DNA of 15,931 nucleotides, taken from NCBI GenBank assembly GCA_031418155.1, contig JANOWZ010000417.1, forward strand, positions 1 to 15,931, in the 5' to 3' direction. The notes under the pieces were generated by a model. The model saw only the letters and a program-made list of their open reading frames with translations. It was not told where the DNA came from and searched no databases. Position 1 is the first letter of the stretch. Every line of letters begins with the position of its first letter. Below, piece after piece: positions 1-12,338 of this stretch. The stretch comes from Deinococcales bacterium. GTDB taxonomy: Bacteria > Deinococcota > Deinococci > Deinococcales > JAAFIG01. The translations under genes and the position numbers were made by a program.

Positions 1-86
1 AAACTCAAACGCTCCTCGGCGGCCAAATTGTCAATCGCTTCAAGGCTCGAGGCTGCGAGCGGTGGCATTGGCTTGGCGACGGTCAT
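1..86 (-). CDS. Partial CDS (N-terminus only; continues beyond window start). Hypothetical protein, probably the next gene of the gvp operon. Translation begins MTVAKPMPPLAASSLEAIDNLAAEERLS
   Basis: The minus-strand frame is open from an ATG at 86..84 to position 1. That ATG overlaps the TGA stop of the upstream GvpL/F gene (ATGA at 83..86). The same coupling pattern recurs at four other junctions in the window. Only 28 residues are visible, which is too little to assign a family. Confidence 0.35.
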   Translation of the reverse strand, partial: MTVAKPMPPLAASSLEAIDNLAAEERLS

Positions 87-868
87 ACGATCGCCTCGAG
101 TTTCGGTTCTGCATTGGCAAACGAATACGGCGCGAACGGACCAGACAATTCTGCACGCATCGCCAAACGATCCGGCCAACCGGCAAGCTCACCCAGCAAA
201 AGCGATTCAGAAATCGAATCCAACAACACCGCACACTCGAGCAAACCCGGATTCGCAGCCTGAGACGCAGGAATTCGCTCAAGCACTTTGATTTCCGTGA
301 CCGCATCCTCGAGCCTCGAGAACGCCTCGCGGCGCAAATCGGGAAGAACTTTTTTAACCTCAACCTCGAGCGCATCTTTCAATTTGCGTTTGAACAAATA
401 CTGACGGCCCGGCGTCGAACCGTTCAACTCGGCCTGCAAATCATCCAACTCAGGATTCGCCTCGATCAAACGTGGCTCGAGTTCGTCACGGTCCACCCAA
501 ACCCGCACCGTGAATTCACGCTGACCGTGCAAGGATTTCAAACGATCAATCATGATTTGCGATTCACGCTCGAGCAAAATGTTCAAGCTTTCTAAATCCG
601 GCACGACCGAACCGAAACGCAACGGAATCACACCAGCATCAATAAAACTCGAGATCGTGCGGTCATGCAAAATCGCTTTACCAGCCACCCAATTTGGATC
701 TTCAACATTCTCGGTCAAGAGTTTTGAGAAATCATCGGCGTTCACAGCCTCACAAATTGCGCCAAGTTTCGCGTAAGAATGAACCTCGATTTTTCCACCA
801 CAAACGCCCTCAAGATTTTCTTCTCGAGCATCGGGAACGGTGAACCCATAGACGTAAAAACCCGTCAT
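83..868 (-). CDS. gvpL: Gas vesicle protein, GvpL/GvpF family
   Basis: The translation (MTGFYVYGFTVPDAREENLEGV ... VHSYAKLGAICEAV ... VIPLRFGSVV) has the conserved N-terminal YVYG and downstream RFG pattern of GvpF/L proteins. The ORF track starts it at 886 (MGGGAIMTGFYVYG). The ATG at 868..866 overlaps the gvpG TGA stop (ATGA), so it is the more likely start. Confidence 0.8.
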   Translation of the reverse strand: MTGFYVYGFTVPDAREENLEGVCGGKIEVHSYAKLGAICEAVNADDFSKLLTENVEDPNWVAGKAILHDRTISSFIDAGVIPLRFGSVVPDLESLNILLERESQIMIDRLKSLHGQREFTVRVWVDRDELEPRLIEANPELDDLQAELNGSTPGRQYLFKRKLKDALEVEVKKVLPDLRREAFSRLEDAVTEIKVLERIPASQAANPGLLECAVLLDSISESLLLGELAGWPDRLAMRAELSGPFAPYSFANAEPKLEAIV

Positions 869-1182
869 GATCGCGCCGCCGCCCATTCCGCCTTACGCGC
901 CTCAATCACTTCAATCTGCTCGAGCAACTCCGCCTCGAGGTCCATGAATTCATCCTCGGTGATGCGCCCCGCATCCAAATCCGCACCGAGCGAGGTGAGT
1001 TTGTGGATCAACGGTTTTTCATCCAGCAAGGTTTCTTCGGCCTGATCCGCGATTTGTTCCGCCACCCACAAGATCGGCCCCAGAATCAAATTCAACGGGC
1101 CGAGCAATTCCATGCCCTCGGTGCCAGCGCGAGCCATCAGCGTGAACCTCTGGAAAATGACTGTCTGGCGAGGGCTTGCCAT
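865..1182 (-). CDS. gvpG: Gas vesicle protein G (GvpG)
   Basis: A roughly 100 aa protein with the GvpG-like pattern ELLGPLNLILGPILWVAEQIADQAEETLLDEKPLIHKLTSLGADLDAGRITEDEFMDLEAELLEQI. The ATG at 1182 sits at the centre of a perfect 20 bp palindrome. An alternative internal start (MELLGPL, about 1113) is possible. Confidence 0.65.
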   Translation of the reverse strand: MASPRQTVIFQRFTLMARAGTEGMELLGPLNLILGPILWVAEQIADQAEETLLDEKPLIHKLTSLGADLDAGRITEDEFMDLEAELLEQIEVIEARKAEWAAARS

Positions 1183-1216: not shown

Positions 1217-2011
1217 TCATTCCTCGTCATCCTCCCAACGCACGGTCATTTCGGAAAACGTGAATGGGGGCAATGGGCCGGTCAAACGAATCGTTAACAG
1301 GTCGTGTTGGTCGTCGAATTCGTGCAGTGCGTTTTCGACTTTCTCGAGTTCTGCTTGCGGCATCAGCACGGACAGGTTGGCGACGACCCCTTCGGGCAGC
1401 GTTCCGTTGGAGATGCCTTCGACGAGTCCGTTCAGTCGTTTCTCGAGCGCGGCTCCGACGTAATCGCGGCGTTTGAGAATCGCGTTTTCCATCATTTGTC
1501 CGAGTCGAATTCTGGCGTGATGGTCGGCGCTGGTGGCGATCTTGTCGCGCAGACTCGAGATTTCTGGGTGCTCACTTAAAACACGTTCGATGACTTCGGC
1601 CGGGTCGGTCCAGGTGGCACGAACGCTGAGTTCGACACGACCATCGACGGCATCGAGTTTGGCTTTCAACTCGTCGGCTTTTTGCGTCAAGAGTTTGCGT
1701 TCGATCACCTCTAAACTCGGACCGATGGTGTTGAAGCGCACCGGCAGAACGGGCGTGATCGCCATGATGGTTTCGACAATCGTTTTGTGGGCCAGTAAAT
1801 TCTTGCGGGCGATGCTGTAACGGTCACTCGAGTTCGCACTGAGGACCACGATCAAATCGCCGACGCGCAAGAGGAATGGTTGACCGGAATTCTCAATCGG
1901 TTTTTGCTCGAGCACGTCCGGTAAATCTGGGTGATTGCGGGCGACGGCGTAGAGATAAAACGGTCCTTCAACGGTTGCCAAATCCGGTTTTACGAGCGTC
2001 GCTTGCGTCAT
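1217..2011 (-). CDS. gvpF: Gas vesicle protein, GvpF/GvpL family
   Basis: The translation (GPFYLYAVARNHPDL ... VLPVRFNTIGPS ...) has the GvpF/L hallmarks. The ATG at 2011 overlaps the stop of the upstream gene (ATGA at 2008..2011). Confidence 0.8.
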   Translation of the reverse strand: MTQATLVKPDLATVEGPFYLYAVARNHPDLPDVLEQKPIENSGQPFLLRVGDLIVVLSANSSDRYSIARKNLLAHKTIVETIMAITPVLPVRFNTIGPSLEVIERKLLTQKADELKAKLDAVDGRVELSVRATWTDPAEVIERVLSEHPEISSLRDKIATSADHHARIRLGQMMENAILKRRDYVGAALEKRLNGLVEGISNGTLPEGVVANLSVLMPQAELEKVENALHEFDDQHDLLTIRLTGPLPPFTFSEMTVRWEDDEE

Positions 2012-2952
2012 GCGTTCACCGCTTTCGTGACGCGCACTCCGAGGCCATGCGTGCTTGCGGCCAGCAAATCTCGGGCCCAGGCGAGGTCGCGCATTTCGTC
2101 CGCCGCATTCGGGTTGTTCGGGTTGCGGTCCGGGTGACGTTCGAGCGCCAGTTTCTTGAAGGTTCGTGCGAGCGTATCGCCATCCACATCGTTATCGAGT
2201 CCGAGCGTTTTGCGGGCGCGATCCAAATCCAACGTGTTCGGCGTGATGATCTCGAGGCTGGCGAAGGCGAAGGCGGGTCCGGGGGCACCGATGCGCCAAG
2301 TGATCCGATCCTCGAGTTTCGCATCCAATTCCGTGATCGCATTTTCCATCGCTTCGAGTTGATCGCGTTTGACAAGGAGCGCCAGGTTGAAGGCGCTGTC
2401 TTCGCCGTTGCGTCCAACATTACCAACCTCGAGCACGCTGTCTTTCAGGCATTGGATTGCGAGGTTCAGCAGCGTTTCGCGTTCGCGTTCAAGTTGAGTC
2501 CCGATCATCATTCCGATTCGCGCCTGATCCTCGGTCGTGACCGTGCCACGCTCGAGCAATTCTTGACGGAACGCGCCGACATCTTCTTGAATAGCGGCGC
2601 GTGCAATCTCATCCTGAACATTCCAACGGGCCGCCAGATTGATTTGCGCCGTGTCCTGGAGCCGAGCGAGTTCGGACAAGAGCGTGTCCTCGTGCAATTC
2701 GAGTAGTTCGATCACCCGCTCACGGTTGGGCAGGTTCGCACCGAGTTTGCAGGGCAAGATGCTCGAGGCATTGACGCTGTGAATCGCGGTTTGATGCTCG
2801 AGCAGAATTTGTGTGAGTTGTGCAGGATCGGATGGCAGATTGATGCGTCCCTCACCGATCAACGCGGCGAGCGGTCCAACCCGCACGACCTCGAGCCCTG
2901 GAGACTGAATTTCTGTGGCATCGGCGCTGTAAATTCCGTAAATCGTGGTCAT
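2008..2952 (-). CDS. GvpF/L-family gas vesicle protein fused to a C-terminal DnaJ J-domain
   Basis: The N-terminal roughly 240 aa are GvpF/L-like (MTTIYGIYSADATE ... HSVNASSILPCKLG). The C-terminal roughly 70 aa (TLGLDNDVDGDTLARTFKKLALERHPDRNPNNPNAADEMRDLAWARDLL) form a canonical J-domain with the HPD tripeptide. Confidence 0.75.
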   Translation of the reverse strand: MTTIYGIYSADATEIQSPGLEVVRVGPLAALIGEGRINLPSDPAQLTQILLEHQTAIHSVNASSILPCKLGANLPNRERVIELLELHEDTLLSELARLQDTAQINLAARWNVQDEIARAAIQEDVGAFRQELLERGTVTTEDQARIGMMIGTQLERERETLLNLAIQCLKDSVLEVGNVGRNGEDSAFNLALLVKRDQLEAMENAITELDAKLEDRITWRIGAPGPAFAFASLEIITPNTLDLDRARKTLGLDNDVDGDTLARTFKKLALERHPDRNPNNPNAADEMRDLAWARDLLAASTHGLGVRVTKAVNA

Positions 2953-2968
2953 TTTGGGTTCCTCCCCA

Positions 2969-5119
2969 TCATCGCTTGCTGGCTTTAACCTCCCCGAGTG
3001 CGTTCTCGAGGTCGGATTGTGTTATCTCGAGGCTAATGCTTTCGTTGTCACCAGTTTCTTTCGTTGAATTAGGTATCGAGGCCACAATTGCGTTCTTGGC
3101 GAGGTGAGCTTGCAAGACCAGCATTGCCGCGCGTCGCACCAACCATTCGAGGTCGGCACCGCTCCAACCCTCTGTCTTTGCGGCCAGGGCATCCAGATTA
3201 AGCTCGCCAGCCGTCGCACGACCCCTCAAATGCACACCGAGGATTTCTGCCCGGTCCGATTCACTTGGCAATTTGAACTCGAGCACCTGTTCAAAGCGCC
3301 CAGGACGCAGTAAAGCCGGATCGAGCGATTCGGGCCGATTCGTTGCGCCCAAAATGATCACGTTCCCAAGACTCGAGATGCCATCCATTTCGGCCAGGAA
3401 TTGACCAATCACCCGGCTCGAGACGGCATCCGCATCGGCACGGTTCGCCAACAATGCGTCGATCTCGTCGAAGAAGACCACGCACGGGGCGCTGGCTCGG
3501 GCCTTGCGGAAGAGTTCGCGCACGGCCTTCTCGGACTCGCCGTAGTACCTCGAGAGAAATTGAGCACCACGCACGGCGATGAAATTCGCCTCGGATTCTT
3601 TGGCGACAGCCCGTGCCGTCAACGTCTTGCCGGTTCCGGGAGGACCCGCCAGCAAGATTCCACGCGGAGGCTCGAGCCGGAGTTGCGCGAACAATTCAGG
3701 GTGCTTGAGGGGAGCCTCGACCGCCTCGATCAATGCGGCTTTGACCTCAGACAAACCACCGATCTCCGTCCAACTCGCACCGGCAATATCGGATTCGGTC
3801 TCGCGGATCAAACTCGGTGAAACCTCACGCAGGGCTGCACGGAAATCCTCCACGCCAACCTCGAGTTGCAACATTTCCTGCGCACTCGGACCTCGACCTG
3901 AGGCCGTCCACGTTGGCAACTGTGAACGGACGCGGTGCATTCCAGCCTCTCGAGCCAAGGCCGCCAAATCCGCACCGACAAAGCCGTGTGTGATTCGCGC
4001 CAAGTCATCCAAATTCACGTCCGGCATCAATGGCATCGCCCGCGTGTGAACCTCAAGGATTTCGCGCCTGCCTTTTGCATCCGGCGGATTGATGACCACT
4101 TCGCGGTCAAACCGTCCGGGCCGACGCAAGGCCGGATCGAGGTTGTCCGGCAGGTTGGTCGCACCGATCACCACGACCTGACCGCGCCCGCCGAGGCCAT
4201 CCATCAACGAGAGGAGTTGCGCAACGACACGCTTCTCGACCTCGCCCTGAACCTCAGAACGCTTCGGACCAATCGCGTCGATCTCGTCCAAGAAAATAAT
4301 GCTCGGGGCTTTCGCTCGAGCCTCCTGAAAAATTTCGCGCAAACGCTTTTCCGAATCCCCATAAAACTTGCCAATGATTTCCGGGCCAGCCACCGAAATG
4401 AAATGCGCCCGTGTCTCACGCGCCACGGCTCGAGCAATCGTGGTCTTGCCGGTTCCGGGCGGGCCGTACAACAACACCCCTTTCGGAGGATCGATTCCCA
4501 ACTGCTCGAACACCTGCGGATAACGCAATGGCAACTCGACCAACTCGCGGACTCGAGCAACCTCACGCGATAAACCGCCGATGTCCTCGTAGCTTGCGCT
4601 CGAAGAAGATTGGGCTGGAGCTTGCGCCTCGCCGGAATTCTCGAGCGCCAAACGCGACTCGCCTCCGACCAACGCATGCGATCCAGGCTCGATGGATTTC
4701 ACCCGCAACTCCAATACCTTCGAGCCGAACAACTCCACGCGAACCCGATCACCCGCCGTCAACGCACGGTCCTGCAACAACGTCTTCAAATCCGAGATTG
4801 CCACGCCCGCACCAGAAATCACCTCGAGCACCACGCTCCGTGCCAAGACCGGCTCGAGTCTTGCAACACGCACTTTCGCACCGATGCTCGAACCCGCATT
4901 TTCTCGGGCCAAACCATCCAGCAACACGCCACGATCACGGTCCTCGGGTCTGGACGGCAACGCACGAACCGCCGTGCTGCGCTCACCCGTGACGACAATC
5001 ACACCACCGGCACGCACGCCCAAACGCTCGAGGTCGGCAGGGGACAGGCGGGCGAGGCCACGGCCCGCATCACGCGGCGCGGCCTCGGCGACGACGATCT
5101 CGAGGGCATCGATTACCAT
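2969..5119 (-). CDS. CDC48/VAT/p97-like AAA+ ATPase (N-domain plus two AAA modules)
   Basis: A CDC48-type N-domain ([21 protein letters not shown]) is followed by two complete AAA cassettes. D1 has [16 protein letters not shown] and [23 protein letters not shown]2 has [18 protein letters not shown] and [21 protein letters not shown]. The ORF track begins at a TTG (5131). The first ATG is at 5119. Confidence 0.85.
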
Positions 5120-5233
5120 GTTGGGTTCCAATTGCGGTTCTGTCGTAGGGGCATCGTGTAATGCACGCTGTTGCGTGACGCATGCCTCGCCCCTACATTC
5201 GCGTTCGCCGAATCAACAACTTGCATCAAACCC

Positions 5234-5725
5234 TCAACCCGCGAACGGAACCATCAACTCGAGGATTCCGTTCTGATAAGACTTCGTGAATTCACCTTTG
5301 ACGGCTTTGGAAAGCTCGAGCGTCTTCGCGTACTTGCGTGCCGCTGCACCGTTCGCTTCAAGCTTCAAGGTTTGTCCCTCGAGCGTGACTTGAATGCTGC
5401 TTTCAACCGCGCCTGGAAGTTCGGCAATCACGCTGTAATGTCCGGTTTCCTCTAGCACGTCAACCATCGGTTCGCGCACGGGTTCGACGCTGGGGTTGCC
5501 ACCGTTGTTCGCCATGTTGCCGAATGTGGAGACGGTCGGTTCACCATTTAAGTTCGTGCGAATGTTGACCCCGATCACACCCTCGAGTCCAGATTTTGTC
5601 GTGAAATTCTGCGTGCCGCCTTCAGCGTTTCCCGCCTGTTTTTGCAATTCTTGAACGACCTCGAGAAGATTGTTGATACCGGAAAAAATTCCGCCAAGTC
5701 CGCTGTTGTCGTTGGTTTTCGCCAT
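5234..5725 (-). CDS. Hsp20/alpha-crystallin family small heat-shock protein (GvpH-like)
   Basis: The alpha-crystallin domain is recognisable: VDVLEETGHYSVIAELPGAVESSIQVTLEGQTLKLEA ... KSYQNGILELMVP. An AGGAGA ribosome-binding site lies about 9 nt upstream of the ATG. The N-terminal region is Gly/Asn-rich. Confidence 0.75.
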   Translation of the reverse strand: MAKTNDNSGLGGIFSGINNLLEVVQELQKQAGNAEGGTQNFTTKSGLEGVIGVNIRTNLNGEPTVSTFGNMANNGGNPSVEPVREPMVDVLEETGHYSVIAELPGAVESSIQVTLEGQTLKLEANGAAARKYAKTLELSKAVKGEFTKSYQNGILELMVPFAG

Positions 5726-5830: not shown

Positions 5831-6121
5831 TCAGTACTCGAGCACCATTGATCCGCCTGATCCCATCGACCCCCGCTTTGGTGCGACCCGAGGGGAAATC
5901 ACTTCGGTTTCGTTTTGCAATTCAATGATTCGCGCTTCAAGTTTCGCCAGCGTTTTTTCACCGTCACTCACGCGCTGCCGCCAGTCGGCCAATCCTCGCT
6001 CGAGGCGCTTGCGTTCGGCGGTGAGTTGGTAGATTTGCAGGTACGTGCGGCTTTCAGATTTGGGCAAGGCCGAACGTCGCAAGCTCGAGGGTGCCAAAGC
6101 AGTTTTGCGTGGGGTGGTCAT
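5831..6121 (-). CDS. Hypothetical small protein (96 aa, basic N-terminus, predicted coiled-coil), gvp-operon member of unknown family
   Basis: A strong AAGGAG ribosome-binding site sits 7 nt upstream of the ATG. Its position between gvpN and hsp20 is consistent with operon membership. No family is recognisable by eye. Confidence 0.55.
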   Translation of the reverse strand: MTTPRKTALAPSSLRRSALPKSESRTYLQIYQLTAERKRLERGLADWRQRVSDGEKTLAKLEARIIELQNETEVISPRVAPKRGSMGSGGSMVLEY

Positions 6122-6235: not shown

Positions 6236-7240
6236 TTACAACGTCATGGCGCGTGATGGTTTGCGTTCACCACCGGCAAGCACGGGCTCGCGGATCTCGA
6301 GGATTTCCGTGCGTTCTGCTGTACGCTCGAGTGGTTTGATGGTGCGGGCTTTCGGCAAGAGGTGCAGCATTTTGGCAACCGCTTGGCTCGAGACGGTATG
6401 GCGTTCGTGTTCGTCGCTGATGCTGCCGGTCAGGACATCCAAAACCACGCGCTCGAACTCAAGGTTTCCGGCGCTGACTTCAAGGTTGCGGACGCTGGCT
6501 ACTCGAGCGATTTGCAGTGCGGCGCGAACGCTGTGTTTGATTTTCAGTTTGCTTTCGCCACGCACGCTGGCGACCAGTTCGGTGATGGCGAGCGCATCTT
6601 CGAGTTGCAATCCTGATCGGGCGGCAACAATTCCGCCTTGCGTCTCGAGGTCGAATCCCTCTAAACGCATGGTCACTAGGCGATCACGCAAGGCTTCTTG
6701 CGCGAGGTGCACTCCGGCGTAATCTTCCGGGTTGCTGGTGAAAATCGCTCGGAAGTCCGGGTGAACTTTCATGTACCCGCCCTTGCCCGCCGCGCTCGGG
6801 TAGATCAAAATACCTTCCTCGAGCACCGGCAACAGGACGTTGTTCGCTTCGGCTTTGGAGCGTGTGAACTCGTCATAAACGAGCGTGTAACCGTTCTTGC
6901 AGGCAATCGTCAGTCGTTCATCGACCCAGGAATTGCTGGAATCTTCGTCCACTTTCAAAACGCTGTGGATGTAGTTGTCCACGACTTTGCGGCGGCGAAA
7001 TCCGTTGTTCGCGCCCAGCAAATTGCTGGAACCAAACTCGTTGTCACCGGCGATCAGCACCATCGGGCGGCCCAGTTTCGTGGCGACATGCAACGCGAGT
7101 GTGGTTTTTCCGGTGCCGCTCGCGCCTTCAAAGTTCACGCCGAGGCCAGCCTCGAGATATCCCAAAGCGCGTTTGGTCAGGTCTTTGACCTGCGCGGTTT
7201 CAACGAAATCTTCGCGCTGTTTGGTGCTGATTTGACTCAT
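6236..7240 (-). CDS. gvpN: Gas vesicle protein GvpN (MoxR-like AAA+ ATPase)
   Basis: FVETAQVKDLTKRALGYLEAGLGVNFEGASGTGKTTLALHVATKLGRPMVLIAGDNEF matches the conserved GvpN N-terminus and Walker A closely. Walker B VYDEFTRS is present. The ATG overlaps the upstream stop (ATGA at 7237..7240). Confidence 0.9.
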   Translation of the reverse strand: MSQISTKQREDFVETAQVKDLTKRALGYLEAGLGVNFEGASGTGKTTLALHVATKLGRPMVLIAGDNEFGSSNLLGANNGFRRRKVVDNYIHSVLKVDEDSSNSWVDERLTIACKNGYTLVYDEFTRSKAEANNVLLPVLEEGILIYPSAAGKGGYMKVHPDFRAIFTSNPEDYAGVHLAQEALRDRLVTMRLEGFDLETQGGIVAARSGLQLEDALAITELVASVRGESKLKIKHSVRAALQIARVASVRNLEVSAGNLEFERVVLDVLTGSISDEHERHTVSSQAVAKMLHLLPKARTIKPLERTAERTEILEIREPVLAGGERKPSRAMTL

Positions 7241-7983
7241 GCGCCACTCGAGACGTAACCGTTATCGGAAAGTTTGATTTTGCCGCTGGCGACAAGGCGT
7301 TTGAGCATCGTGGCAACTTCGCTTTGATCGAGTTTCAAGCCTTGTGCGAGGTCCTCGAGTGACAATCCTGGAACGCTCGAGATGGTGCGCAAGACGATGT
7401 GCTCGCGGCGTTTCTCGACTGGGTTCAGCACGGCAACGCCGACGGAAAGAGCGCCCTGCGGCATTGGTTTGGCGGCAGGCTTGCTGGCTGGACGGGCCGC
7501 ACGCACGACTGGTTTGACATCCGATCCGCGCATTTGACGGGCGAATCCCTCGAGTTGTTCACGCATGACCGCACGTGCGGTGGCGTGAGCCTCGAGCAAT
7601 TGACCTGTTTCGGCACTGAGCGTTTCGCGTTCACTGGCGCGTTTGCTGGCATCACGGCGGGCGCTCGAGATTCGTTTTGCACCTTGAGCGGCAAGTGTTT
7701 CTTGCACCGTGGCTTTGCGTTGGTTGTTTTCGTGTGCGCGATCAGTTGCGCGTTGAGCGCCCTGGGTGCTGCGAATCTCCGCGATAATCTCGAGCTTCGC
7801 ATGAACGGCTTGCGCTTGGGTTGCAACCTCGTTTGCACGGGCGATGTGTTCAACGGCGCGGATGGTACTTGCCGCCACGAATTCTTCGCGGCGTTCCTGA
7901 TCAAAATTCAGGCGGTCGCTGGCGGATTTGTTCAGTTTCTCGCGCAGTGCGGCTCCAGCCTGGTCATCTAATGTCATCGGCAT
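7237..7983 (-). CDS. Hypothetical coiled-coil protein with KPAAKP-type linker and C-terminal winged-helix-like domain; gene directly downstream of gvpA (possible GvpC-like structural or regulatory role)
   Basis: It is Ala/Glu/Arg/Gln-rich and predicted helical over roughly the first 150 aa. A VKPVVRAARPASKPAAKPMP linker follows. The C-terminus HIVLRTISSVPGLSLEDLAQGLKLDQSEVATMLKRLVASGKIKLSDNGYV resembles a winged-helix (LexA/ArsR-like) fold. The ribosome-binding site is AAAGGTGA. Confidence 0.55.
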   Translation of the reverse strand: MPMTLDDQAGAALREKLNKSASDRLNFDQERREEFVAASTIRAVEHIARANEVATQAQAVHAKLEIIAEIRSTQGAQRATDRAHENNQRKATVQETLAAQGAKRISSARRDASKRASERETLSAETGQLLEAHATARAVMREQLEGFARQMRGSDVKPVVRAARPASKPAAKPMPQGALSVGVAVLNPVEKRREHIVLRTISSVPGLSLEDLAQGLKLDQSEVATMLKRLVASGKIKLSDNGYVSSGA

Positions 7984-8087
7984 GATTTCACCTTTTTGGA
8001 TGTGTCATTGGGTACTGGATGGATACGGGATATGGTTATCGAATAGGGCTTGAACTCGAGGTTTGGGCGGTAGGTGAGGTGTTGAGG

Positions 8088-8118
8088 CTTTTACTTTCCT
8101 CTTTTCTCTTTCCTCTCG
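8088..8118 (-). repeat. Second copy of the purine-rich intergenic element (19-mer TTACTTTCCTCTTTTCTCT identical to 6196..6214) in the gvpA-downstream intergenic region
   Basis: There is an exact 19 nt match to the gvpN-downstream hairpin arm, with similar flanks (GGCTnTTACTTTCCTCTTTTCTCTTT..CCTCT). On the sense (minus) strand it reads GAGAGGAAAGAGAAAAGAGGAAAGTAAAAGCC. Confidence 0.6.
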
Positions 8119-8164
8119 CCCCCAAGCAATTCGGGCGGGCCGAGCGTGATGCCCGACCCACCCG

Positions 8165-8180
8165 CAAGACCTGTGTCTTG
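8165..8180 (-). terminator. Small hairpin CAAGACctgtGTCTTG 17 nt downstream of the gvpA stop, followed by a second GC-rich stem (CGGGC...GCCCG); possible partial terminator or attenuator after gvpA
   Basis: There is a perfect 6 bp inverted repeat with a 4 nt loop. No U-tract follows, so termination is uncertain. Confidence 0.25.
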
Positions 8181-8196
8181 GCCTGAATCTAAAAGA

Positions 8197-8415
8197 TCAG
8201 ACTGCTGGTGCGGCGACCGTCGAGGTCAAACCGATGGCTTCGGCGTACTTCAAGTACGTCTCGACCGATGCAGCAACGACGCGGGCTTCGATGGCGATCA
8301 ATTCGATGCCGACCAGTGAGACGCGGGCGAATGCGTCGATGACGATGCCTTTGTCCAGGATGCGGTCCACAACTTCGCCGAGGCTCGAGGAGTTCATGCT
8401 TTTTTCGACTGCCAT
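8197..8415 (-). CDS. gvpA: Gas vesicle structural protein GvpA
   Basis: [64 protein letters not shown] is a near-consensus GvpA (72 aa). The ATG at 8415 is preceded by a GGAGGT ribosome-binding site. The ORF-track entry 8197..8592 is an in-frame upstream extension with no support. Confidence 0.95.
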
Positions 8416-8840
8416 ATGTACCTCCGTAAAATTTGAATTCTTGGTTCTTGCCCAGGGATAAATGGGGCGATGTTGGGAAAAGAGGTTCAAGAATTCTTTT
8501 GGGTGTTTTTCCGGTTCTTGCCGGTGTGTGAATGGTGCACCCTCGAGCAAGGTTTGAGTAAGCCTCTTCTGGGTATTGGGTATACCCCCCATTTGGGTAT
8601 GCCCGTTTGGGGCTGGTCAAGTTGCGGTCTCGCGCCTACTTTGTTTGGACTCGGAACTGTGGCAAAACTTGTGTGATGCACAGTATTTGTGGGTTCCGCT
8701 ACAGTTTGGTGGTTTGAAAGAATTTTGCAAGAGATGGTTCGGCAAACTGAAGCTCTGGCAAGGGCGAAAAGTTGAACAGGGCTTCTACAAGTTCAGGCCG
8801 ATAAGTTCCAGGCCAGCAGCACAACGAAAGGGGGCGTGAG
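8416..8840. promoter_or_regulatory. About 425 bp divergent regulatory region between gvpA (-) and the acidic E2-like gene (+)
   Basis: It holds no convincing ORF. It contains the GGGTATACCC palindrome plus two more GGGTAT half-sites (about 8570..8606), direct repeats GGTTCTTGCC (8443..8452 and 8513..8522) each near GAATTCTT, and TTGAAC hexamers on both divergent sense strands. Confidence 0.5.
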
Positions 8841-10661
8841 TTGAGTACACGAGGATTCGGCGACACAGACTGGACCGACGGGTTTTCTCGACCGTGGGAT
8901 GTTTCCGTGGCATCATTTGAAGCCATCGAAACCGACCTGGACGAGTTGATCGACCCGGACGGGATCGAGTCTGCATTGGCCATCGACGATCAGGGGAATT
9001 TCCTCGCCTGGATGGATTCGGAACGCGGGATGGCTCCAGTGCCGCTCGCGGCTTCAGAGTTCGAGGCTCCGGTGGCGCAAGATTTGAACGCGCCAGCGGC
9101 GAAAGTGTCTAAGGGTTTCAAACGGTTCACGCCGCCAGTTCCGGTGGTTGAGCCCAGCGAACCGACGACCTATCAGGCCAGCAGCGAGGCGATTGATGCG
9201 GTGTTTGCCGAACTCGAGGCGAGCGCCAAAGCCAGCACAGAACAGTCAGATGCACCCGAGGTTGAGGCGCAGGCAGATGTTCAGGTTCAGGCCGATTCGG
9301 ACATTTATGCTGAGGTCCATTCTGAAGATCAAGACGATCAGGGTGCGGTTGAAGCAAAGGCCAAGAAGCCAAAAATTGATCCGATGGCGCTCGAGGATGC
9401 GTTCGAGAGTGTGCCGTTTGACCTTCCAGAGTTGATGGGCGAACAGTCTGGCACTGTACTCAGTGAGCAACCTGTCGCGCTCGAGGGTGAAGCGGAGGCG
9501 GTCGAAGCTCAGGCAGAAGTTGAACTCCCAGCAGTTGAAGCTCAGGCAGAAGTGGTCGAGGTTGAAGTTCCAGCAATCGAAGCTCAGGTTGAAGTTGTTG
9601 AGGCCGAAGCAATTGTCATTCCCGAGGGCGAACCGGTCGAACCCGTCGCCGCCTGGAAGAAGCCCGTCAAACCCAAAAAGCAACCCAGCGAATTTGGCAT
9701 CGACGAAGTTCCACTCGAAGCGCTGCTCGAGATTGCGAATACCGAGGCCGAAGACGAAGAGAATCATGCCGAGGCCGAAGCCGTCACGATTGACCTGCAA
9801 CCCGAGGCGGATGCGCTTGCCGCAGTTGGCTTGGGCGAAGCAAGCCTTCAGGAAGGCATCATGGCCGCTTACGAGATGGAGGGTGCGCCAATCACCGATT
9901 TGAGCGCATTGATCGAGAGCAGCAAAGCACTCGAGGTTTCAACCGCCCGTGAAGCGGTCAACGAACCGGTCGCCACACCCGTTCATGCCGGATTTGTTGC
10001 TACTGCTGAAAGCAATGAATCGCCAGAGGCCGTGCTCCAGGCGCTCGAGACCAGCGTGCTCGGATTTGAAACACCAGAGATTCAACCGCTCGATGCAGAA
10101 CTCGAAACGGATTCCAGCGTCGCGGCAGTGCTGGCCCCAGAAATCATGAATGTCCCGATGATGCCCGCGACGACCACGTTGCGCCGTCACTTCGACGCGA
10201 CCGACCTGATCGAAGCGCAGATTCGTTTGCGTCACGCACTGCGCCCATTGGACGTTTCGATGGTCTCGCTCTTGGGTCGCGCCGCCGAACGTTGCGCCCT
10301 CGAGTTGCCGGGAATCAAAACGATTGCACTCGCCGAACTCGGCGACAATGGGATTGCAGTCACCGCCAAGATCAAAGCCGTCGAAAGCTTCCGCGAGATG
10401 CTTGCGGGCATCAGCGAGGGCTCGAGCGGCGTTCGTGGCGACCTGAGCGTCGTTGACATCAGCGACCTCGGCTTGGATGAAGTGGTCTTGCCACTCGCCG
10501 GACCGCACCTCTTGCTGACCCGTCTTTCGCCACACCCGGACAAACCGGGTCGCATGCGCGGCACGGTCTCTCTCTCTGGCCTCGTGAACCTTCGCGCTGG
10601 CGCATCATTCCTCGATCAGGTCGTCTCGAAACTCGAGGCTCCGATCACGCTGATGGTCTGA
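8841..10661 (+). CDS. Acidic tandem-repeat protein with a C-terminal 2-oxoacid dehydrogenase E2 acyltransferase (CAT-like) catalytic-domain homologue lacking the catalytic His/Asp
   Basis: A TTG start is preceded by an AAAGGGGG ribosome-binding site. The N-terminal roughly 430 aa are highly acidic and low-complexity with EAQAEV-type repeats. The C-terminal roughly 170 aa align to the E2 catalytic domain: RRHFDATDLIEAQIRLRH against HFDKTDITELEAFRK, VVDISDLGLDEV against FTISSIGGLG, and TVSLSGLVNLRAGASFLDQVVSKLEAP against ISLSFDHRVIDGADGARFI. In that alignment DHR is replaced by LVN. Confidence 0.7.
   Translation: MSTRGFGDTDWTDGFSRPWDVSVASFEAIETDLDELIDPDGIESALAIDDQGNFLAWMDSERGMAPVPLAASEFEAPVAQDLNAPAAKVSKGFKRFTPPVPVVEPSEPTTYQASSEAIDAVFAELEASAKASTEQSDAPEVEAQADVQVQADSDIYAEVHSEDQDDQGAVEAKAKKPKIDPMALEDAFESVPFDLPELMGEQSGTVLSEQPVALEGEAEAVEAQAEVELPAVEAQAEVVEVEVPAIEAQVEVVEAEAIVIPEGEPVEPVAAWKKPVKPKKQPSEFGIDEVPLEALLEIANTEAEDEENHAEAEAVTIDLQPEADALAAVGLGEASLQEGIMAAYEMEGAPITDLSALIESSKALEVSTAREAVNEPVATPVHAGFVATAESNESPEAVLQALETSVLGFETPEIQPLDAELETDSSVAAVLAPEIMNVPMMPATTTLRRHFDATDLIEAQIRLRHALRPLDVSMVSLLGRAAERCALELPGIKTIALAELGDNGIAVTAKIKAVESFREMLAGISEGSSGVRGDLSVVDISDLGLDEVVLPLAGPHLLLTRLSPHPDKPGRMRGTVSLSGLVNLRAGASFLDQVVSKLEAPITLMV
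9500..9620 (+). repeat. Imperfect tandem DNA repeat (about 3 units of 33 to 42 nt, core GAAGCTCAGGCAGAAGT) encoding VEAQAEV(V/E) repeats
   Basis: GAAGCTCAGG(C/T)(A/T)GAAGT recurs at about 9506, 9540 and 9582. Confidence 0.6.
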
Positions 10662-10689
10662 TGATGACGAACTTTCATCAATTCTCGGC

Positions 10690-10758
10690 TGTGCTAGACG
10701 CGAACAAGAATTTCTCGAGCAATATTTTAAAAATTATCATGCAGTGGAAAGGAAACAT
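10690..10758 (+). promoter_or_regulatory. AT-rich segment (TTTCTCGAGCAATATTTTAAAAATTATCATG) upstream of the HD-GYP gene; candidate promoter
   Basis: The local AT-richness is unusual in a window of roughly 58% GC. It lies directly upstream of the GGAAAGGAAA ribosome-binding site and the ATG at 10759. No exact -35/-10 assignment is made. Confidence 0.3.
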
Positions 10759-11403
10759 ATGAGTGATCTCTTCAGAGACGGTTTCATTGACGAGATCGTT
10801 GATGCCTACGTCAAGGACTTCGGCGACCGCGTGGAAAACACCGACCGCTTCGAGCACTACTCCCCAGGACATGCCCGTCGTGTAGCCGAAACCAGCGTCG
10901 CCATCTGCGAAGGTTTGGATTTCGAGGAAGAAGACATTCGCGTCGTCAAAACCGCCGGGTTGCTCCACGACATCGGCGAGGTCATTCAAAAGCACGCCTT
11001 CTACGGCGCACCTCGAGTCTTGACCCCAGAAGAAACCGTTGAGATGTGGCAACACAGCCTGATCGGTGAACGCGAAGTGGCACGTCGCGGTTTTGGACGC
11101 AAAGAACAGTTGCTGGTGCGTTGGCATCACGAACGCTGGAACGGTCAGGGCTACCCGGACATGCTGTTCGGACCCGACTTGCCGCTCGGTGCTCGCATCA
11201 TCCGTTTGGCGGACACCTGGGATGCGCTGACAAACGACCGTCCGTGGCGTTTGGCGATGTCTGAAGCCGATGCGCTCGAGGAGATCAAACTCGGTGCAGG
11301 CATGGAGTTCGATCCAGAACTCGTCGGCTTGTTCCTCGAGTTGCACCAATGCGGAGCCTTGATCCCAAGTGAAAACTTCGCCATCTCAGGAGGCAAACGA
11401 TGA
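10759..11403 (+). CDS. HD-GYP domain protein (stand-alone cyclic-di-nucleotide phosphodiesterase-like)
   Basis: The HD motif (LLHDIGEV) and the HD-GYP signature WHHERWNGQGYPD are both present. The start is assigned to the ATG at 10759, 5 nt after the GGAAAGGAAA ribosome-binding site. The ORF track begins at a GTG at 10744. Confidence 0.8.
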   Translation: MSDLFRDGFIDEIVDAYVKDFGDRVENTDRFEHYSPGHARRVAETSVAICEGLDFEEEDIRVVKTAGLLHDIGEVIQKHAFYGAPRVLTPEETVEMWQHSLIGEREVARRGFGRKEQLLVRWHHERWNGQGYPDMLFGPDLPLGARIIRLADTWDALTNDRPWRLAMSEADALEEIKLGAGMEFDPELVGLFLELHQCGALIPSENFAISGGKR

Positions 11404-12338
11404 GTGGCGTCAAAGAATACGTCGGCGCAGAAGTCATGCTGCTCTCAAAAGTCCTCAAGCTCGAGAGTGTCGCCGTACCCTTCGGTGGACGCAACCCAAT
11501 GTGGCTCGGCTGGTGGATGAAGACTTTGGGCAAGAGCGTGCACATGAACGACCTGTTGCACTTTTCATACATGGACTCGGTCGGCCTGATCGAAAACGAA
11601 GGCTTCTTGTTGGACGGCGACACCCTCGGCGAACTGACCAAAGACATCGGCGACGGCAAGCAACTGACCAACCCAGAACTCGCCCGTCTCGTCCCAATGC
11701 AAGACGCATACTTCTTTGATCAACTTCGTCCACGCATCGAAAAACTGCCAGCCCGTCAAAAAGGTATCGCCATTCGAGCCGGATACAACACCATGCGATA
11801 CGCCCAAGTCATGGACTCCTCGAGATTCGTGAACCTGCGCGTCTCCCTCGACAAAGTCTTCGCCCGTGAAGTCGAAGAGATCAACAAGCGCATCACCTCG
11901 AGCGGCAAAGGCCAAGCGTACATGGAAGAGGCCGGAAGCTTCGTCGGCAACGTTCGCGCCAGCGCCCTGTACATGCAACTGCCAAGCATGGGCGGCTTCA
12001 GCACCGAATACGCTGCGGGCGCACGTCCACGCGGACCACTCGGACGCGAAATCTGGGCACGCGGCCCAAGCAAAACCTGGATGCCAGAACTGAAGGCCGC
12101 CACCAAAGGCACCTTCGGCGACCGCTTCACCTCACGCGAAGCGTACTTCAAAATGGTCTCGGAATTCCTCGAGAAAGCCAACGATTACCCAGTCTGGGTG
12201 TTCAACCTCGAAGAAAGCGAATACCCCGATGTCCTGCGTGCCGTGATGCAGTTCCGTAAGCCAAAAGCCGTGCATCGTTTTGACACACGCGAAGCGAGCG
12301 GCGGGTACATGAGCTACTTCTTGATCGCAGAGAAATAA
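11400..12338 (+). CDS. Dam-like (D12-class N6-adenine methyltransferase fold) protein with a non-canonical motif IV (MQLPS in place of DPPY); translationally coupled to the HD-GYP gene
   Basis: An ATGA overlap with the HD-GYP stop spans 11400..11403. Residue patterns parallel E. coli Dam: KEYVGAEVMLLSKVL against KWAGGKYPLLDDI, VPFGGR against PFVGAG, HMNDLLHFSYM against ADINSDLISLY, and RAGYNTMRYA against NRYGYNGLCRYN. The position expected for DPPY reads YMQLPSMGG. No [DNS]PP[YFW] occurs anywhere in the protein. Confidence 0.5.
   Translation: MSGVKEYVGAEVMLLSKVLKLESVAVPFGGRNPMWLGWWMKTLGKSVHMNDLLHFSYMDSVGLIENEGFLLDGDTLGELTKDIGDGKQLTNPELARLVPMQDAYFFDQLRPRIEKLPARQKGIAIRAGYNTMRYAQVMDSSRFVNLRVSLDKVFAREVEEINKRITSSGKGQAYMEEAGSFVGNVRASALYMQLPSMGGFSTEYAAGARPRGPLGREIWARGPSKTWMPELKAATKGTFGDRFTSREAYFKMVSEFLEKANDYPVWVFNLEESEYPDVLRAVMQFRKPKAVHRFDTREASGGYMSYFLIAEK

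Follow-up and report, generated by a model that had tools for sequence, protein, structure and literature searches.

A conserved GvpF/L protein with a J-domain in bacterial gas-vesicle gene clusters suggests a link to the Hsp70 chaperone system

The role of GvpF and GvpL in gas-vesicle biology is debated, the candidates being nucleator, scaffold and chaperone. The stretch of DNA analysed here (the window: 15,931 nucleotides, contig JANOWZ010000417.1 of assembly GCA_031418155.1, listed as a Deinococcales bacterium) bears on this debate; it holds a gas-vesicle (gvp) cluster in which one gene, at 2008-2952, had been read from the sequence alone as a GvpF/L homologue fused to a C-terminal J-domain. 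Is this fusion a genuine protein, is it peculiar to this organism, and what would a J-domain do in a gas-vesicle protein? We find that the gene, here called gvpF/L-J, encodes a two-domain protein belonging to a large family, and that related clusters carrying the fusion often encode an Hsp70 as well.

The gene lies on the minus strand as a single unbroken open reading frame (ORF) of 314 codons, with its ATG start at 2952 and its TGA stop at 2008-2010. A peptide quoted in the sequence-only reading (KTLGLDNDVDGDTLARTFKKLALERHPDRNPNNPNAADEMRDLAWARDLL), for which the strand had gone unstated, occurs exactly in this minus-strand translation. The plus-strand reading of the same interval contains an internal stop and gave no matches, and it was dropped. 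The stop codon of the upstream Cdc48-like gene (2969-2971) lies 16 nt before the ATG, and the TGA shares an ATGA overlap with the ATG of the following gvpF/L gene (1217-2011); with its putative ribosome-binding site, this short gap and this overlap, gvpF/L-J is an ordinary, tightly packed operon gene.

Two profile matches divide the protein. The Pfam family GvpL_GvpF (PF06386) covers residues 4-231 with 87.4 bits (E=2e-24, cut-off 23.6) and positions 4-244 of a profile of 245, while DnaJ (PF00226) covers residues 249-298 with 32.9 bits (E=7.2e-8), above its curated cut-off of 27.8. When the final 84 residues alone were compared with all PDB sequences, only J-domains were found, led by DNAJC5 (4e-10) and ERdj5 (2e-6), with weaker matches near 1e-3 to DNAJB1 and to E. 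coli DnaJ (the latter 4e-3). An AlphaFold2 model made with 149 diverse homologues has a predicted local distance difference test score (pLDDT) of 96.6 and a predicted template modelling score (pTM) of 0.88; a run on nine near-identical sequences gave a pLDDT of 40 and was not used. A Foldseek comparison with the PDB ranks two crystal structures of GvpF highest for this model, 6L5D and 4QSG, with target-normalised TM-scores of 0.65-0.72 (E 1e-11 to 1e-10), and after these come many J-domains, including the DnaK-bound 5NRO_B, at a root-mean-square deviation of 1.0-1.8 Å over ~53 residues. Three helices are predicted for the J part, at 240-249, 258-272 and 283-299, and the HPD tripeptide occupies the loop that joins the second to the third. 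Both domains named in the sequence-only reading, the N-terminal GvpF/L fold and the J-domain with its intact HPD, are thus upheld by profile and structure matches alike.

The further claim that the J-domain is C-terminal holds in so far as the domain lies near the C-terminus, but it is not strictly terminal. The Pfam DnaJ match ends at position 54 of the 63 in the profile, the model contains no helix IV, and the chain is predicted to finish in a β-strand (304-309) at the place where J-domains have that helix. Judging from the model, the J-domain is for this reason more aptly viewed as an insertion ahead of the last strand than as an independent tail at the C-terminus. Throughout the family the J-domain is succeeded by a short hydrophobic strand and then by basic residues (LLINIRR and LLIAIRRQE in other members, GLGVRVTKAV in the window protein).

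Against characterised GvpF and GvpL proteins (PF06386; the Microcystis 4QSG, the Anabaena 6L5D and the haloarchaeal proteins), gvpF/L-J shares the two-lobed α+β fold and the Pfam family, and it likewise stands in a gvp operon beside gvpG and further gvpF/L paralogues. It differs in that the characterised proteins, of ~230-280 residues, have no J-domain, while gvpF/L-J adds a J-domain of ~60 residues and a terminal strand; its identity to the crystallised GvpFs is 17-18%, and it reaches none of the NCBI equivalog cut-offs for GvpF or GvpL.

On the J-protein side, Y25, K26 and R27 in helix II of E. coli DnaJ are Hsp70-contacting residues. In an HPD-on-HPD alignment with E. coli DnaJ, F265, K266 and K267 of gvpF/L-J fall opposite these three, and R276 and N277 fall opposite R36 and N37. 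Searches with Pfam (no PF01556 or PF00684) and NCBIfam revealed no glycine/phenylalanine-rich (G/F) region, zinc finger or DnaJ C-terminal domain in gvpF/L-J; every NCBIfam DnaJ model stays at 19-29 bits, far below cut-offs that run from 338 to 619, and the weak NCBIfam matches to DnaJ and TopJ are confined to the J-domain. Since these other DnaJ regions are missing, we class the protein by its sequence as a class C (type III) J-protein and not as a DnaJ orthologue. In class C J-proteins Hsp70 is recruited to one specific structure or client; examples are HscB, which brings IscU to HscA, auxilin, which brings clathrin to Hsc70, and Mycoplasma TopJ, which acts in terminal organelle assembly. 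Here too an HPD-bearing J-domain is joined to a non-DnaJ domain that would do the targeting, while, unlike in those examples, the J-domain lies near the C-terminus and has no helix IV. A full-text literature search found no J-protein paper with a GvpF-fold targeting domain.

A Pfam DnaJ score of 32.9 bits is modest, and it might be asked whether a frameshift or a chimeric assembly has joined a gvpF/L gene to the start of a dnaJ-like gene, or whether the tail is a helical segment that bears an HPD by chance. We regard the probability of this as vanishingly small. The exact protein sequence is present on three contigs (NCBI, Logan and ENA), and eight cluster representatives from different contigs and sources, 90-97% identical, likewise encode both domains in one contiguous ORF; among nine close homologues the J-domain core and the HPD are invariant, insertions and deletions being confined to the helix I-II loop. 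Compared with a 92%-identical relative (locus L001; handles of this form are ours), the J part and tail show 11 synonymous and 3 non-synonymous changes, a ratio of non-synonymous to synonymous rates (dN/dS) of about 0.08, next to 0.13 for the GvpF body; by this measure the J part is under purifying selection. The sequence-only reading had named a frame-shifted remnant of a separate gene as one finding that would undo it, and the single ORF, the conservation and the low dN/dS rule this out. With the hundreds of distant homologues of the same architecture and the confident fold match, an artefact or a pseudogene was rejected.

Those distant homologues make up a large family. An exhaustive HMMER search of 1.84 billion cluster representatives (50% identity) with gvpF/L-J returned 934 matches at E<=1e-3 and 290 at E<=1e-10; nearly all of the best 150 have 330-390 residues and align in one piece from the GvpF body through the J-domain. 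An alignment of 149 of these representatives, sharing 21-46% identity with the query, shows each of H273, P274 and D275 kept in 136. Word-indexed searches with the full protein or the full alignment returned almost only close relatives, and a profile of the GvpF body with the J-domain removed was used instead; this found 748 proteins at E<=1e-20, and 118 of the best 120 carry both PF06386 and PF00226. The sequence-only reading had proposed a search for other proteins of this architecture, and here they are in numbers. A metagenome scan added 589 relatives; its profile was made from the subset with the motif GPLPPYSF, and it favours the main family over the subclade of the window. A scan of a genome collection with the single protein gave only a 92% relative, from a metagenome-assembled genome (MAG) labelled Deinococcales, and one match confined to the J-domain.

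Members come from Bacteroidales, Ignavibacteriae/Ignavibacteriales, Chloroflexota (Anaerolineae and Dehalococcoidia), Thermoleophilia and Nanopelagicales, and further ones from Nitrospirota, Thermodesulfovibrionales, Coprothermobacterota and Lentisphaerota. A cultured member is found in the gas-vacuolate sea-ice bacterium Octadecabacter arcticus 238, on plasmid pOA238_160 (WP_015497776.1, 360 residues), with GvpL_GvpF, a DnaJ match barely over the cut-off (28.0 bits) and an intact HPD. The Octadecabacter genome paper describes that gvp cluster and leaves the J-domain unmentioned (PMC3646047). NCBI labels the fusion proteins plainly as 'GvpL/GvpF family gas vesicle protein', while JGI sometimes uses 'GvpL/GvpF/DnaJ domain'. 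The fusion is thus neither rare nor specific to the organism of the window; it is a large family that has gone unremarked in public databases. The Octadecabacter entry and the many MAG proteins share with gvpF/L-J the two domains, the HPD and the position in a gvp cluster; they are 22-46% identical to it, and most differ in having 340-370 residues, the motif GPLPPYSF and a longer tail after the J-domain. As for the host of the window, the 92%-identical relative L003 (JAYURE010000522.1) belongs to a MAG labelled Deinococcales that was obtained by CONCOCT binning; to our knowledge gas vesicles have not been described in Deinococcota, and with this and the binning in mind the label needs checking.

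The window protein belongs to a subclade of 312-329 residues with IGAPGPAFAF after the J-domain, where the main family has GPLPPYSF. In neighbour-joining trees of the GvpF bodies, the J-fused proteins including that of the window form one clade, separate from the unfused paralogues, with BLOSUM62 or Kimura distances, though not with p-distance, and with a bootstrap of 15-30% only. Taken by itself, the J-domain of gvpF/L-J resembles human DNAJC5 no less than it does most of the main family, so that it does not decide between single and multiple origin. The gene order fusion, unfused gvpF/L, gvpG is shared, with a second unfused gvpF/L before gvpG in one locus (L005). A single ancient fusion event is plausible. 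A subgroup has lost the HPD (it reads, for example, AAESNADQR): these GvpF/L proteins of ~332 residues keep the J-like helices and the final strand and are encoded at L050 10001-10999 and in L046, L057, L061, L062, L064, L065 and L068. The L050 gene has a two-component system on one side and birA on the other, and neither gvpA nor gvpN occurs within 10 kb of it; its product is a GvpF-fold orphan that belongs to no gas-vesicle cluster.

If the J-domain acts with an Hsp70, the gene neighbourhoods of the family are of interest. The gvp cluster of a Chloroflexota MAG ends in an Hsp70 gene (L009, 14089-15597), which has 8 nt in common with the last gvpA-like gene. Residues 1-468 of its product align with Geobacillus DnaK (2V7Y, 6.8e-161), over the nucleotide-binding domain, the LLDV linker and the β substrate-binding domain, and by this alignment it is a genuine DnaK-type Hsp70. 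A tblastn search over the fetched loci placed a DnaK-type Hsp70 inside the gvp cluster in 15 loci. Where the HPD is intact and at least 8 kb of downstream sequence is available, 11 of 15 loci have a cluster Hsp70, and 13 of 15 have Hsp70 or Cdc48; the 11 of 15 is not an unbiased frequency, since the ranking of the 80 metagenome loci took a single Hsp70-containing cluster as its reference for similarity, and the loci are mutually related. Inside the Hsp70-bearing clusters the fusion is the sole J-protein, the canonical dnaJ of L009 lying outside its cluster; no GrpE gene was seen in the fusion-bearing clusters. Other cluster Hsp70 genes are found at L011 14846-16288, L013 16008-17447, L035 15074-16516, L049 12895-14466 and elsewhere; measured from stop to stop their ORFs have ~520-630 codons, while the L009 gene is called at 502 residues.

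The cluster Hsp70 is usually accompanied by an Hsp20 and a Cdc48-like ATPase in the same cluster, and two layouts recur. In the first, seen in the window, L001, L005, L007, L008, L090, L091 and seven more metagenome loci, Hsp20 and Cdc48 stand directly upstream of the fusion; Cdc48 is the immediate upstream neighbour in 10 loci besides the window. In the second, Hsp70, Hsp20 and Cdc48 are all found downstream of the fusion, where the cluster ends; this holds for 9 of the 10 loci with all three genes, and in 6 of these 10 the order is Hsp70, Hsp20, Cdc48. In the Thermoleophilia locus L008, an uncalled stretch of 2.5 kb directly upstream of the fusion (7500-10000) encodes a Cdc48-like ATPase (759 bits by tblastn). 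An M48-type peptidase gene follows Hsp20 in three clusters (L008 4790-5836, L028 and L082), adding a protease to the chaperone set. ArsA/Get3-like ATPases also recur in fusion-bearing clusters (L005 6873-7826, L022, L024, L027, L040, L076 and L081-L084), in L005 between Hsp20 and Cdc48, and they extend an association of ArsA with gvp clusters noted in 2010 (PMC2963123).

From what is shown here, namely two domains kept across the family, their genomic setting and the Hsp70 genes that accompany the fusion in relatives, we derive a proposal for what gvpF/L-J does. In general, a J-domain docks with its HPD loop and helix II on ATP-bound Hsp70 and triggers hydrolysis, and Hsp70 then clamps the client held by the other domain of the J-protein. 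For unfused homologues of the body, published experiments have named partners: haloarchaeal GvpF is the only direct partner of GvpA and binds its N-terminal half (PMC7688916), GvpF is the primary partner of GvpA2 in the B. megaterium cluster and has been proposed as its chaperone (PMC11445434), GvpF/L also bind the GvpA homologue GvpM (PMC6107691), and E. coli suffers proteotoxicity when shell protein is overproduced (PMC12848028). Taking this binding together with the general action of J-domains, we infer that a client would be presented to Hsp70, and we think it reasonably likely that gvpF/L-J is a specialised J-domain co-chaperone that uses its GvpF/L fold as a client-binding module and hands GvpA-type shell proteins to Hsp70. 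The body would bind the hydrophobic, aggregation-prone shell proteins of the GvpA family, or the assembly complex on them, and the J-domain, through its HPD loop and basic helix II, would dock on ATP-bound Hsp70 and stimulate ATP hydrolysis. Hsp70 would thereby capture the client at the site of gas-vesicle assembly, keep it soluble and pass it to the growing shell. The Hsp70 partner may be the cluster's own DnaK paralogue in many relatives; in the lineage of the window, whose cluster holds no Hsp70 gene, it would be the housekeeping DnaK. Probably gvpF/L-J would work together with the Hsp20 and the Cdc48-like ATPase encoded just upstream.

The presence of these two neighbours can also be taken to mean that the fusion serves removal and not assembly, acting as targeting subunit in a cluster-encoded machine for disaggregation or recycling (Hsp20, Hsp70 and the Cdc48-like AAA+ protein) that extracts or unfolds mis-assembled or collapsed GvpA sheets. 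The Hsp20 and the two-ring AAA+ unfoldase directly upstream in the window, the 10 other loci with Cdc48 in that same place, and the recurrent order of Hsp70, Hsp20 and Cdc48 all fit such a machine, and the gene set resembles the bi-chaperone system of small heat-shock protein (sHsp), DnaK-DnaJ and ClpB: the window and its relatives encode an Hsp20, a J-protein, an Hsp70 (in the relatives) and a two-ring AAA+ ATPase. Unlike in that system, however, the AAA+ partner is Cdc48-like (CDC48_N and CDC48_2) and not ClpB; we know of no evidence for a ClpB-like cooperation of Cdc48-like ATPases with Hsp70. Moreover, gvpF/L-J sits in the middle of an assembly operon, overlapping the next gvpF/L gene, and some fusion clusters, such as that of Octadecabacter, have neither Cdc48 nor Hsp70. 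We therefore see recycling as a rather unlikely main function.

Several observations weigh against a co-chaperone role as such, and most of them would suit a J-like module that acts independently of Hsp70, as a structural or interaction module of the Gvp assembly complex that contacts, for instance, the Cdc48-like ATPase or another Gvp protein; J-like domains of the Pam16 type bind partners without stimulating Hsp70. The HPD is lost in 13 of the 149 representatives (about 9%) while the J-like domain is retained, and the orphan subgroup without HPD persists outside gvp clusters. Four loci lacking the HPD (L038, L053, L059 and L066) retain a cluster Hsp70, so that co-location with Hsp70 is not strictly tied to a functional HPD, and the co-location count itself carries the sampling bias given above. 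Helix IV is replaced by a strand in the model, and the high pTM together with the kept final strand suggests that the J-domain is an insertion packed against the GvpF body, apparently set rigidly between it and the strand, and not a flexible tail. Finally, neither the window nor the cluster of its near relative L090, which is complete, was found to hold an Hsp70 gene; the idea in the sequence-only reading that the fusion couples Hsp70 to gas-vesicle assembly thus draws support from the DnaK-type Hsp70 inside related fusion-bearing clusters, though not from the cluster of this lineage. Against independence from Hsp70 stand the strong neighbourhood linkage to Hsp70 genes and the retention of the HPD in 91% of the representatives, with the basic and aromatic residues of helix II, across very deep divergence. 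Such deep conservation is hard to explain unless Hsp70 is the selective agent, and we accordingly hold a role without Hsp70 to be improbable.

With a co-chaperone role for gvpF/L-J as the preferred explanation, we speculate more broadly, and only tentatively, that the gvp clusters of many uncultivated bacteria encode a self-contained proteostasis machine specific to this organelle, in which an sHsp, a dedicated DnaK paralogue and a Cdc48-like unfoldase would be given specificity for GvpA by a GvpF-fold J-protein, enabling the extremely hydrophobic shell to be assembled and perhaps recycled. If this is true, GvpF/L proteins in general would be chaperone adaptors and not structural nucleators.

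The features of the window are collected in Table 1.

Table 1. Genes of the gas-vesicle cluster in the window and parts of gvpF/L-J, with the basis of each assignment
Feature	Position	Strand	Basis
gvpF/L paralogue 3 (GvpL-like), without J-domain	83-886	-	Pfam GvpL_GvpF 121.7 bits; NCBIfam best match GvpL
gvpG	865-1182	-	Pfam GvpG 55 bits
gvpF/L paralogue 2, without J-domain, start overlaps gvpF/L-J stop	1217-2011	-	Pfam GvpL_GvpF only, 169 bits
gvpF/L-J: GvpF/L body, J-domain and C-terminal strand, 314 residues	2008-2952	-	ORF; Pfam GvpL_GvpF and DnaJ; AlphaFold2; Foldseek
C-terminal tail of gvpF/L-J, residues 300-314, predicted β-strand 304-309 replacing helix IV	2011-2055	-	AlphaFold2, pLDDT 84-94
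J-domain helices I-III, residues 240-299	2056-2235	-	Pfam PF00226; PDB sequence matches; AlphaFold2; fold matches
HPD tripeptide H273-P274-D275, Hsp70-activating loop of J-domains	2128-2136	-	sequence; homologue conservation
GvpF/L body, residues 1-236	2245-2952	-	Pfam PF06386; Foldseek 6L5D and 4QSG
Shine-Dalgarno-like GGGGAGG	2961-2967	-	8 nt upstream of ATG, read from sequence
Cdc48-like double-ring AAA+ ATPase	2969-5131	-	Pfam CDC48_N, CDC48_2, 2x AAA, AAA_lid_3
Hsp20-like small heat-shock protein	5234-5725	-	NCBIfam NF041800 2.7e-29, below cut-off; weak Pfam HSP20
96-residue conserved cluster protein	5831-6121	-	no Pfam/NCBIfam match; conserved in L001, L007, L090
gvpN (AAA+)	6236-7240	-	NCBIfam TIGR02640 312.6 bits, cut-off 266.8
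248-residue protein, C-terminal MarR-like winged helix	7237-7983	-	Pfam MarR_2 27.2 bits, residues 192-236
gvpA, 72 residues	8197-8415	-	Pfam Gas_vesicle; NCBIfam PRK09371 GvpA 124 bits

Read along the minus strand, the cluster runs gvpA, the gene for the 248-residue protein, gvpN, the gene for the 96-residue protein, Hsp20, Cdc48, gvpF/L-J, gvpF/L, gvpG and gvpF/L, and then meets the edge of the window. The two gvpF/L paralogues without a J-domain that had been said to follow gvpF/L-J are indeed there, with gvpG between them. The near relative L090, on a 26-kb contig, continues with a gvpJ-like gene, a fourth gvpF/L, a gene for a 200-residue unknown protein, gvpK and a second gvpA-like gene; of the four gvpF/L paralogues in this complete cluster, only the first carries the J-domain. 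Beyond the cluster of L090 lie a gene for a large HD/PAS/GAF sensor and then a response regulator.

Some assignments call for comment. The mechanically called gvpA ORF (8197-8592) has 131 residues, the GvpA match begins at residue 60, and relatives are called at 72 residues; the true start is, from these sequence comparisons, most likely the ATG at 8415. The Cdc48-like ATPase scores 788.7 bits with NCBIfam TIGR01243, just under the cut-off of 802.65, and the Hsp20-like gene stands beside Cdc48 in related clusters also. The gene for the 248-residue MarR-like protein sits between gvpA and gvpN and overlaps the start of gvpN by 4 nt; L007, L090 and L091 have a gene of similar size in this position, that of L007 at least being homologous by tblastn, and the product could be a cluster regulator or a structural protein adjacent to GvpA.

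Divergent from gvpA lies a conserved unit (window 8841-12338 on the plus strand, L090 15507-20563) that encodes a 606-residue protein without Pfam match (459-724 residues in relatives), an HD_5 (HD-GYP-type) protein and a 312-residue unknown protein; in relatives the HD/PAS/GAF sensor, of 1,400 residues, and a response regulator are encoded at the opposite end of the cluster. The divergent unit and the sensor suggest signal-dependent control of vesicle formation, possibly linked to cyclic di-GMP.

In about 8 million full texts, a set that omits much subscription literature, we found no mention of a fusion of GvpF/L with a J-domain or of Hsp70 genes in gvp clusters. The expectation that such fusions are not described therefore holds for the searched literature, though not for databases, where the combination is surely listed among domain architectures and appears in the JGI name given above; the fusion is undescribed in the literature searched, and not unseen. 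Both parts belong to known families, and the logic of a class C J-protein is familiar.

The finding matters in several ways. The widespread and ancient fusion provides independent comparative evidence for the view of GvpF as a chaperone adaptor that came from interaction screens (PMC11445434), and the DnaK gene often present in the same operon adds to it. The plasmid-borne member in the cultured Octadecabacter arcticus 238 makes the role of the fusion experimentally accessible. Heterologous gas vesicles, used as reporters for ultrasound and magnetic resonance imaging, are limited by GvpA proteotoxicity and by the chaperone capacity of the host (PMC12848028), and clusters equipped with a J-protein, Hsp70, sHsp and AAA+ set of their own offer candidate parts for a sturdier expression of gas vesicles. 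If our proposal is true, the GvpF fold would be a new client-targeting domain in the class C repertoire of J-proteins. For gas-vesicle biology itself, the fusion suggests that the Hsp70 chaperone system may be tied to gas-vesicle assembly by the very make-up of an assembly protein.

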